Part shown: positions 4,226 through 4,300 of the stretch, piece by piece | Numbering within the stretch: position 1 is the first letter of the stretch | How the letters are laid out: every line of letters starts with the position of its first letter | Source: a virus | Lineage: Duplodnaviria > Caudoviricetes | Direction: 5' to 3' (one strand) | DNA length: 60,327 bases | IMG/VR virus record: IMGVR_UViG_3300008113_010061 | Coordinates: 1 to 60,327 of that record | The notes under the pieces: model-generated | Told to the model about the DNA's origin: nothing | Databases searched by the model: none | Seen by the model: the letters and a program-made list of their open reading frames with translations, nothing else | Position numbers and translations under genes: made by a program

Positions 4226-4300
4226 ATGAAGTGGACCACACCCGCAGCTCAAGATATGCGTTTTGGCTTTGAAATCACCATGTATATCGCAAATCGCTAA
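4226..4300 (+). CDS. pqqA: Pyrroloquinoline quinone precursor peptide PqqA (24 aa), not in the ORF track
   Basis: AGGAGA RBS at 4215-4220; ATG4226..TAA4300 gives [24 protein letters not shown]. It has the PqqA pattern W-x-x-P...D-x-R-x-G-x-E-x-x-x-Y-x-x-N-R, with the Glu and Tyr (EITMY) that become PQQ. Confidence 0.95.
   Translation: [24 protein letters not shown]

Follow-up and report, generated by a model that had tools for sequence, protein, structure and literature searches.

The window analysed here, a linear stretch of 60,327 bases, is the entire IMG/VR record IMGVR_UViG_3300008113_010061 (CheckV completeness ~32%), and it represents a freshwater T4-like phage. Close to its 5' end lies a 24-codon open reading frame (ORF) for PqqA, the precursor peptide of the redox cofactor pyrroloquinoline quinone (PQQ), which stands apart from any gene for the PQQ biosynthetic enzymes PqqB–E. 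An earlier note, made from the letters of the window, had described this ORF as having a strong ribosome-binding site (RBS) and an intact E-x-x-x-Y core, and these features were borne out, with an identical translation.

4226..4300, + strand: pqqA coding sequence (CDS) with an ATG start, 24 codons and a TAA stop, from the translation and the matches to PF08042 and TIGR02107
4215..4219, + strand: Shine-Dalgarno (SD) sequence AGGAG with a 6-nt spacer to the pqqA ATG, read from the sequence

Both curated hidden Markov models (HMMs) of the family, whose use the note had proposed as a check, were passed by the window peptide, Pfam PF08042 with 38.9 bits against a gathering score of 21.1 (E = 7.8e-10, profile 1–19 of 19) and the NCBIfam equivalog model TIGR02107 with 39.1 bits against a cut-off of 20 (E = 4.8e-10, profile 1–21 of 21). 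A six-frame PqqA search of the whole record returned 4226–4300 as its single place (36.7 bits, E = 3.8e-10). The core reads E16-I-T-M-Y20, with Glu16 and Tyr20 four residues apart, and it is the glutamate and tyrosine of E-x-x-x-Y that are cross-linked when PQQ forms. With its own start, RBS and stop, the ORF falls within the very short range of PqqA genes (about 22–30 codons), and the profile matches confirm it as a true PqqA gene, far beyond chance. The usual, though not obligatory, operon context in or near pqqBCDE was found neither in the window nor in its complete relatives; this lack does not exclude membership of the family, because orphan copies are normal in the Methylophilaceae (according to an extract of PMC4109929).

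The genes that follow pqqA in the window belong to a phage backbone, the nearest of them being an ORF of conserved position:

4391..4660, + strand: ORF89, conserved neighbour 3' of pqqA in the window's phage clade
4708–5265, + strand: endolysin (Pfam, PHROGs)
5355–6287, + strand: ORF310, part of the backbone 3' of pqqA
6615–7214, + strand: gp59 helicase loader, T4-type (Pfam, PHROGs)
7636–8547, + strand: gp32 single-strand-binding protein (Pfam, PHROGs)
10960–11373, minus strand: holin (Pfam, PHROGs)

A T4-like baseplate and tail module lies further along the window, and pqqA is thus a metabolic gene flanked by viral genes (gp59, gp32, endolysin, holin, baseplate) in a bona fide viral genome, as is expected of an auxiliary metabolic gene (AMG). 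Two giant ORFs, of 1953 and 2670 amino acids (aa), were seen in the baseplate/tail region (22599–28460 and 29947–37959, + strand).

Continuity of the contig, for which the earlier note had proposed read mapping, was supported by an independent IMG/VR contig (L333) with 100% identity through PstS, porin, pqqA, ORF89, endolysin and ORF310, and by the recurrence of the stretch 1500–9000 in 15 DNA runs from 11 coded studies, mostly labelled freshwater (0.71–0.93 of sampled words). In run X2 depth was non-zero in 30 of 30 bins; no bridging contig crosses 3660–4982 among the X2 pieces listed, so continuity rests on the identity to L333 and on the word shares. A megablast of window positions 1–12000 against deposited phages gave no match. 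Mis-assembled host DNA, which the earlier note had named as grounds for abandoning its proposal, was not borne out, as there are phage genes on both sides and L333 is identical through the junctions. The window pqqA is a phage gene, and not the product of mis-assembly or host contamination.

The earlier note had seen no pqqB–E in the window, and neither tblastn nor HMM searches found pqqB, C, D or E there. As the record is only ~32% complete, absence from the window alone proves little, and whole relatives were therefore searched. A bacterial contig supplied the PqqB–E queries, which gave no tblastn match in 229 viral pqqA loci; as a positive control, the same search matched pqqB–E genes at 103 of the 120 bacterial pqqA loci, and all four at 77. 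The whole-record HMM set comprised the window, six complete isolate genomes and 18 IMG/VR records (seven of them ≥93% complete), and in each search a Hydrogenophaga genome or a bacterial contig was positive as control. Nothing in the viral records scored above cut-off for PqqC (0/23), PqqE (0/23), PqqB (0/25) or PqqD (0/25), and the PqqE model returned only weak generic matches to radical S-adenosylmethionine (SAM) proteins (16–38 bits against a 381-bit cut-off). The complete relatives include a 214-kb genome with terminal repeats (G416, the record of locus L304) that is syntenic with the window and carries ORF89 at 74% identity, 129 nt after pqqA. Phage pqqA is stand-alone at the level of the genome. 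The wider check for pqqB–F and PQQ dehydrogenases that the earlier note had proposed, made here on whole viral records, returned no PqqB–E above cut-off and a dehydrogenase in a single record, described below. As a separate observation, five radical-SAM-like ORFs occur within 12 kb of the complete 214-kb genome (71618–83247), 35.6 kb away from its pqqA.

Viral pqqA is not confined to the window. A tblastn search of 50,697 deposited phage records matched 12, of which ten are true phages with intact copies throughout: Melnitz (four records, an OM43 myophage), Venkman, MEP301, MEP401 and MEP402 (OM43), P19250A (LD28) and MW202481 (a spring-water virus). The remaining two, both deposited as 'Acinetobacter phage MD-2021a', were rejected as bacterial chromosomal contigs with entB, fur, ppk and pqqABCDE (L008, CAKLQF020000010.1, 102204–114275); such records would give false viral pqq matches in surveys. 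None of the ten phage genomes has pqqA annotated, the place being occupied by no feature or by a hypothetical CDS on the opposite strand. The latter is the case in Melnitz (L002, MZ577095.1, 74882–74953) and MW202481 (L004, MW202481.1, 2122–2187), and the former in P19250A, MEP301, Venkman and MEP401/402; these records could be re-annotated.

The census and neighbourhood survey proposed in the earlier note was made by pattern scans of IMG/VR, from which gene-order tables were drawn up. The first scan used degenerate DNA for W-x2-P-x7-G-x-E-[VIM]-T-x-Y, and 118 of the 120 matches listed were PqqA-shaped (Met no more than three residues before the Trp; stop exactly four codons after the Tyr). 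The second scan, for the C-terminal variant of the window, gave 111 new loci among the 118 matches listed, 107 of them intact and four cut at locus edges. Both scans combined, with matches listed in arbitrary order, yield at least 225 distinct IMG/VR loci with a PqqA-shaped ORF, and every one of the 25 viral records tested passed TIGR02107, always with a single copy. The E-x-x-x-Y motif is present throughout these 225 viral copies and the 120 bacterial ones listed, having been part of the pattern by which they were chosen. Among the carriers are genomes from 35 kb in size to complete ones of 214 kb and 364 kb, as well as six complete isolate genomes and seven IMG/VR records that are ≥93% complete. 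The gene adjoins tRNA-Leu and the baseplate hub in Melnitz, lies near the genome end in MEP402 and between the recombination and lysis modules in MEP301 and Venkman, and stands beside gp59/gp32 in the window. When 125 loci were clustered by single linkage on shared ORFs, 19 components resulted, the largest holding 71 loci including the window, a figure that is unusable as a count of lineages.

In the clade of the window ~40 viral loci preserve the order pqqA–ORF89–endolysin–gp59–gp32, and across them identity falls to 28% for gp59 and to 49% for gp32. In more distant T4-like relatives a pqqA variant '...NVRLGFEITMYFKTR' lies immediately 5' of the endolysin (L069), and another, '...EMRFGFEVTMYVMNK', immediately 3' of gp32 (L108), and this presence of different variants in the same neighbourhood suggests versions matched to different host groups.

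A total of 123 viral cores comprise 115 distinct nucleotide versions and 61 peptides, with a pooled pN/pS of 0.25 and a pS of 0.62, statistics that are partly inflated by the seven core positions fixed by the search pattern. The arginine at core position 10 lies outside this pattern and is invariant in 115 of 115 versions, which use all six Arg codons; because the pattern sets seven other positions, this unconstrained residue is the fairest evidence of selection. The substitution pattern indicates that viral pqqA peptides are under purifying selection, and together with synteny across deep divergence it marks the gene as maintained by selection in viruses. When copies of the window variant were compared (115 viral and 118 bacterial, among the matches listed), the median GC content at third codon positions (GC3) was 0.32 in the viral and 0.59 in the bacterial set, the 32 viral and 25 bacterial distinct peptides had none in common, and Gln at core residue 7 occurred in 49 of the 115 viral and in none of the 118 bacterial copies. 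The lower GC3, the unshared peptides and Gln7 therefore point to a long residence of viral pqqA in phage genomes.

Among the 120 bacterial loci listed, the C-terminal variant of the window is found in Limnobacter, Rhodoferax/Albidiferax, Polaromonas, Limnohabitans, Hydrogenophaga, Thauera, Cupriavidus and metagenome-assembled genomes (MAGs) of Burkholderiales/Comamonadaceae, and nearly all of the loci with this variant have pqqB–E alongside. On the basis of the peptide variant and of a two-piece transfer-messenger RNA (tmRNA) of betaproteobacterial type, a freshwater betaproteobacterium of Burkholderiales type that has the complete PQQ pathway is the probable host; a predicted host devoid of pqqBCDE, which would have undone the proposal of the earlier note, was not what emerged, as the likely hosts carry these genes. 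The Hydrogenophaga control genome encodes a PQQ-dependent alcohol dehydrogenase ~4 kb away from its pqq genes. Among the bacterial matches listed for the window core, the best agrees at 56 of 66 nt (L219, L191). The VMNK variant, which is the commonest in the first viral scan and the tail of the OM43/LD28 phages, turned up in 4 of the 401 genomes sampled from the order, with 3–6 copies each, and two of these four genomes measure only 1.3 Mb. Extracts of earlier work describe 3–12 pqqA copies in the Methylophilaceae next to one pqqBCDEFG set, with orphan copies and one copy in a genomic island (PMC4109929), and place orphan copies among the most expressed (PMC9851590). A second, orphan pqqA, with no pqqB–E within the 8-kb locus, was also seen in Limnobacter and related MAG loci (L138, L163, L169, L186, L208, L227, L239, L240, L247). 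Multi-copy pqqA is therefore not confined to the Methylophilaceae, since Limnobacter holds an orphan copy besides its operon copy.

One candidate viral record (G004, the record of L066; 72 kb, 20% complete) carries a PQQ-dependent alcohol/methanol dehydrogenase (TIGR03075, 608 bits in one frame, 34049–35731). This full-length dehydrogenase gene lies ~6 kb from pqqA (41890–41952), and no pqqB–E is present in the record.

The sequences flanking pqqA were compared over 15 syntenic viral contexts. An (A/T)AGGAG or AAGGAG box precedes pqqA at the same place in all 15, and the surrounding elements are arranged as follows:

4131..4158, + strand: weak sigma-70-like promoter candidate TTGATA-16-CATGAT, 9 of 12 (consensus scan; region with 5 sites against 2.3 expected)
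4144..4153, + strand: AATGATTTTC box, candidate promoter or regulator site, present, or with 1–2 changes, in 14 of 15 aligned contexts
4164..4208, + strand: 5' leader stem-loop, outer stem of 11 bp (4164–4174/4198–4208), inner stem 4176–4183/4187–4194
4179..4188, + strand: TATAGATACT, -10-like; relatives have TATAGATAAT or ATATATAAT, and the alignment pattern is TATAGATA(A/C)T
4301..4329, + strand: strong sigma-70-like promoter candidate TTGACA-17-AATAAT, 11 of 12 (consensus scan), after the pqqA stop and facing ORF89
4336..4359, + strand: 3' stem-loop TGCTGG...CCAGCA between pqqA and ORF89 (from the fold)

In L315 and L304 the -10-like box has TTGAC(A/T) ~17 nt upstream, as read by eye from the alignment, and the candidate promoter at 4301–4329 is kept only in the closest relatives, L326 and L295. 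The RNA fold of 4130–4400 has a free energy of -66 kcal/mol (z = -2.92). A short hairpin also precedes the SD at this position in relatives, with differing sequence and retained pairing, and across 188 unique viral contexts the 38-nt leader reached z < -2 in 95, compared with 18 of 188 random-position controls. The 3' stem of relatives likewise has another sequence in the same layout of AAAA plus 3' arm; the 60 nt after the pqqA stop reached z < -2 in 123 of the 188 viral contexts and in 20 of the 188 controls (Mann-Whitney p ~2e-22). A hairpin of -10 kcal/mol or lower after the stop was present in 166/189 viral, 111/111 bacterial and 6/6 isolate-phage contexts. A hairpin with a T-rich tail was counted in 34/189 viral and 21/111 bacterial contexts, but this crude count, based on the final helix of a 70-nt fold, undercounts obvious terminators and was set aside in favour of the comparisons of fold energy. 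By its predicted elements, phage pqqA is a self-contained mini-cassette with the same compact layout as bacterial pqqA genes.

ORF89 follows pqqA on the same strand in 41 of 41 scorable loci, at a distance of 61–1993 nt, and its N-terminal motif PFEIRLELL is invariant. An AlphaFold2 model predicts two helices and no strands (predicted local distance difference test score, 85); in structure comparison the BFVD matches were all uncharacterised phage proteins, and the PDB gave no match at E <= 0.001. A role for ORF89 as a PqqD-like chaperone was considered and rejected, as none of 20 members matched the PqqD model (E up to 10) and the modelled fold has two helices and no sheet. A homologue with 29% identity is present in Phage C48C1, which gave no PqqA match.

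Upstream of pqqA lie the tmRNA and a phosphate-acquisition block (351–4134, + strand), the latter immediately 5' of the gene:

351–1277, + strand: 308-aa ORF with a weak, sub-threshold alkaline-phosphatase match
1232–1641, + strand: two-piece tmRNA, permuted, betaproteobacterial type (RF01850, 145 bits; RF04321, 139.9 bits; tag ANDESYALAA)
1672–2718, + strand: PstS phosphate-binding protein (Pfam PBP_like_2, 3e-34; phrog_5385, 1.4e-63)
2728–4134, + strand: OprO/P phosphate-selective porin, 468 aa (Pfam Porin_O_P, 3.5e-49)

The porin matched no PHROG family, and its presence in a phage may make it an unusual AMG in its own right. Homologues of PstS were found in six and of the porin in five of the 229 viral pqqA loci, so that these two genes are a variable add-on outside the conserved pqqA module. 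Loose contig ends accumulate at 1594 and 4391 in both DNA and RNA contigs, and one X2 DNA contig joins 1594 to 4391, a hint only, given that its shorter side has 23 letters; PstS and porin, perhaps with pqqA, may form a variable cassette in the interval from the tmRNA to ORF89. A two-piece tmRNA is likewise reported for the OM43 myophage Melnitz (PMC9004378, in extract).

The function that we favour for phage pqqA, with a probability of roughly two in three, is substrate supply: the phage would add a highly expressed, consumable PQQ precursor, from which the enzymes of the host would keep making PQQ for its quinoprotein dehydrogenases. Upon infection, the cassette would give rise to abundant short transcripts and peptide, and host PqqD/E, PqqB and PqqC together with a host protease would turn the peptide into PQQ, at one peptide per cofactor. 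The extra PQQ could keep or raise the activity of periplasmic quinoproteins (XoxF/MxaF methanol dehydrogenase, PQQ alcohol dehydrogenases), and the sustained dehydrogenase activity would in turn supply respiration and energy for phage replication. Support for supply comes from the amplification of pqqA alone by hosts, the architecture of the cassette, the selection on the peptide and the pairing of pqqA with a dehydrogenase in G004 and in a viral population from Lake Baikal. Error-free matches of lake metatranscriptome contigs from three runs to 1500–9000 fall on the porin (2847–3020, 3171–3310), ORF89 (4413–4549), the endolysin (4984–5238) and gp32 (7843–7993 and others); no RNA contig covers 4226–4300 among the pieces listed, which, for contigs only, is evidence neither for nor against transcription of pqqA.

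Several points weigh against supply as the function. Besides the partly inflated selection statistics and the arbitrary order of the matches behind the survey of viral loci, a PQQ-dependent dehydrogenase was present in only one of the 23 viral records tested (G004). The host of the window phage is a probable one, and the transcription of its pqqA, the conversion of the peptide to PQQ and the shortage of peptide after host shut-off that the earlier note had proposed are presumed. PQQ is a reusable catalytic cofactor that is not consumed by turnover; a need for new PQQ within the latent period is an assumption, and would require new apo-enzyme or a periplasmic loss of PQQ. Peptide supply is moreover unproven as the bottleneck, because overexpression of pqq genes gives only modest gains of PQQ in some bacteria and PqqB or PqqC may be limiting (PMC9851590, in extract).

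Other explanations differ in what the peptide, or the DNA, would be doing. It is unlikely that the peptide acts otherwise, be it as a decoy tying up PqqD/PqqE and lowering host PQQ, as a regulatory or signalling peptide, or as a source of PQQ for redox protection or release to neighbours. The leader of PqqA is the part recognised by the chaperone PqqD, and a decoy could explain why, among the matches listed, viral leaders differ from the sampled bacterial ones in Gln7 and share no peptide with them; a rise of PQQ in infected cells is likewise presumed. Nevertheless, the cross-linked residues and the whole C-terminal core are the same as in bacteria, which makes PQQ the expected product, hosts themselves multiply pqqA, and the pairing with a PQQ-dependent dehydrogenase in G004 and in the Lake Baikal population (PMC7678222, in extract) fits supply. 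Quite unlikely, in turn, is a neutral or selfish passenger, that is, a small mobile unit of promoter, ORF and terminator that was repeatedly acquired, or else one retained because its hairpins serve as terminator or insulator. The unit is indeed tiny and self-contained with strong flanking hairpins, its position in the genome differs between phage lineages (Melnitz, MEP301/Venkman, MEP402 and the window), and orphan and genomic-island copies occur in the Methylophilaceae (PMC4109929, in extract), yet a passenger would not be expected to show purifying selection on the peptide amid abundant synonymous change, with an invariant Arg written by six codons. Against it stand as well the codon composition, which has drifted to phage-like values, the retention of pqqA at a single locus despite gp59 identities of only 28–37% between the phages, and the start codon and exact four-residue tail of every intact copy.

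Two further explanations concern the DNA itself. That phage pqqA is an attachment or recombination target, a phage copy of a host gene used for integration in the way that temperate phages use tRNA genes, is very unlikely: in MEP301, Venkman and P19250A it does lie in an intergenic gap near ERF, YqaJ and Sak-like recombinase genes and a Cro/CI regulator, but no integrase is annotated beside pqqA in the isolate regions examined, the window and Melnitz are T4-like phages, and the copies, which have their own start, SD and hairpins, represent whole genes and not 3' fragments. The best bacterial match of the window among those listed (56/66 nt) also leaves no identical core. The chance that the locus is bacterial, through a mis-assembled chimera or the host flank of a prophage, is close to negligible. 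IMG/VR records can hold host DNA, the 'Acinetobacter phage MD-2021a' records are bacterial contigs, and PstS, porin and pqqA in a row look host-like; these concerns are countered by the tmRNA and PstS upstream and the endolysin, gp59 and gp32 downstream, which were counted as phage genes flanking pqqA, by the identity of L333 through the junctions, and by the recurrence across runs and studies with unbroken X2 depth. The six complete cultured-phage genomes that carry pqqA, the absence of adjacent pqqB–E from all 229 viral loci and the phage-like GC3 argue in the same direction.

A substrate-only virus gene would point to the step that limits PQQ supply, and would fit the unexplained 3–12 pqqA copies of methylotrophs, which extend even to 1.3-Mb genomes. 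Methanol turnover in lakes and coastal seas depends centrally on XoxF-type PQQ-dependent dehydrogenases, and any influence of phages on PQQ would thus have consequences for the flux of C1 carbon. At 72–75 bp, pqqA is shorter than the minimum length that most gene callers and AMG pipelines accept, and catalogues of viral metabolic genes may systematically overlook peptide-sized genes, hundreds of viral contigs being recovered by a simple pattern scan. We tentatively propose, at slightly under even odds, that pqqA is a widespread, overlooked and possibly the smallest AMG, a 72–75-bp substrate-only cassette fixed independently in at least five kinds of phage, with a variant that matches the host group; the five kinds are T4-like myophages of fresh water, T4-like myophages of marine OM43, siphovirus-like and podovirus-like methylotroph phages, and jumbo phages of 200–360 kb. 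If so, PQQ synthesis in these bacteria would be controlled by the amount of precursor peptide and not by the enzymes, and phages would act through it on the oxidation of methanol and alcohols in lakes and coastal seas. The cultured pairs of OM43 phage and host (Melnitz, Venkman, MEP phages) make the idea directly testable, although the 1 nM PQQ in the culture medium of OM43 phages (PMC9004378, in extract) could hide any effect of pqqA.

Viral PqqA has been known in kind since 2020, when Coutinho et al. (Microbiome; PMC7678222, in extract) described it in the Lake Baikal viral population VP_266, with predicted Methylophilaceae hosts and a viral methanol dehydrogenase, and read it as an AMG. The proposal of the earlier note, a substrate-only AMG, stands as regards a true PqqA that is phage-borne and stand-alone, with pqqBCDE in the likely hosts, and only in part as regards novelty. 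A 2026 paper lists pqqA, pqqD and pqqE among viral phosphorus-cycle genes (PMC13188868, in extract). By word search, no phage pqq gene is mentioned in the main texts of PMC8024684, PMC10580990, PMC8163748, PMC9004378 and PMC12195039, which include the four papers checked on cultured OM43 phages, although all of these phages carry pqqA, and extracts of PMC11118758 (bacterial PqqA co-expressed with defence systems), PMC12801897, PMC9564219 and PMC5120137 held nothing relevant to phage pqqA; the literature searched yielded no experimental work on viral PqqA. Relative to the main texts searched, and with the proviso that supplementary tables may list more, what is new is how widely the gene occurs (at least 225 IMG/VR loci and ten deposited genomes), that the enzymes are strictly absent, that hairpins flank the cassette, that some leader variants are specific to phages, and that the carriers include, besides methylotroph phages, T4-like and jumbo phages of other Burkholderiales.

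In comparison with bacterial PqqA, the window copy shares the family, the length, the W-x-x-P leader, the G-x-E-x-T-x-Y core, the four-residue tail and the hairpin after the stop; it differs in being viral, in the genome-wide absence of pqqB–E from its complete relatives, against their presence alongside pqqA in 103 of 120 bacterial loci, in leader variants that are absent from the 118 sampled bacterial copies, and in the lower viral GC3. Its stand-alone state resembles that of the orphan copies among the 3–12 of the Methylophilaceae (PMC4109929, in extract). With VP_266, compared by description (PMC7678222, in extract), it has in common a phage PqqA read as an AMG, probable betaproteobacterial freshwater hosts and a proposed link to PQQ-dependent methanol oxidation, and G004 repeats the pairing of pqqA with a PQQ-dependent dehydrogenase; unlike VP_266, the window is T4-like, has a Burkholderiales-type variant and no dehydrogenase, and carries a phosphate-uptake block upstream. 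The pqqA genes of cultured methylotroph phages are likewise intact and stand-alone, with 64–75% peptide identity to the window, and Melnitz is also T4-like with a two-piece tmRNA, whereas their tails read VMNK, VLNK or IMTR, their genome positions are others and the genes are unannotated. Cyanophage psbA (D1) and similar AMGs resupply a component with fast turnover, and the proposed logic of pqqA would be alike in that the virus supplies a used-up component of a host energy pathway while relying on long-lived host machinery. The difference is that psbA encodes a working protein subunit, while the product of pqqA would be a substrate destroyed to make a small-molecule cofactor.

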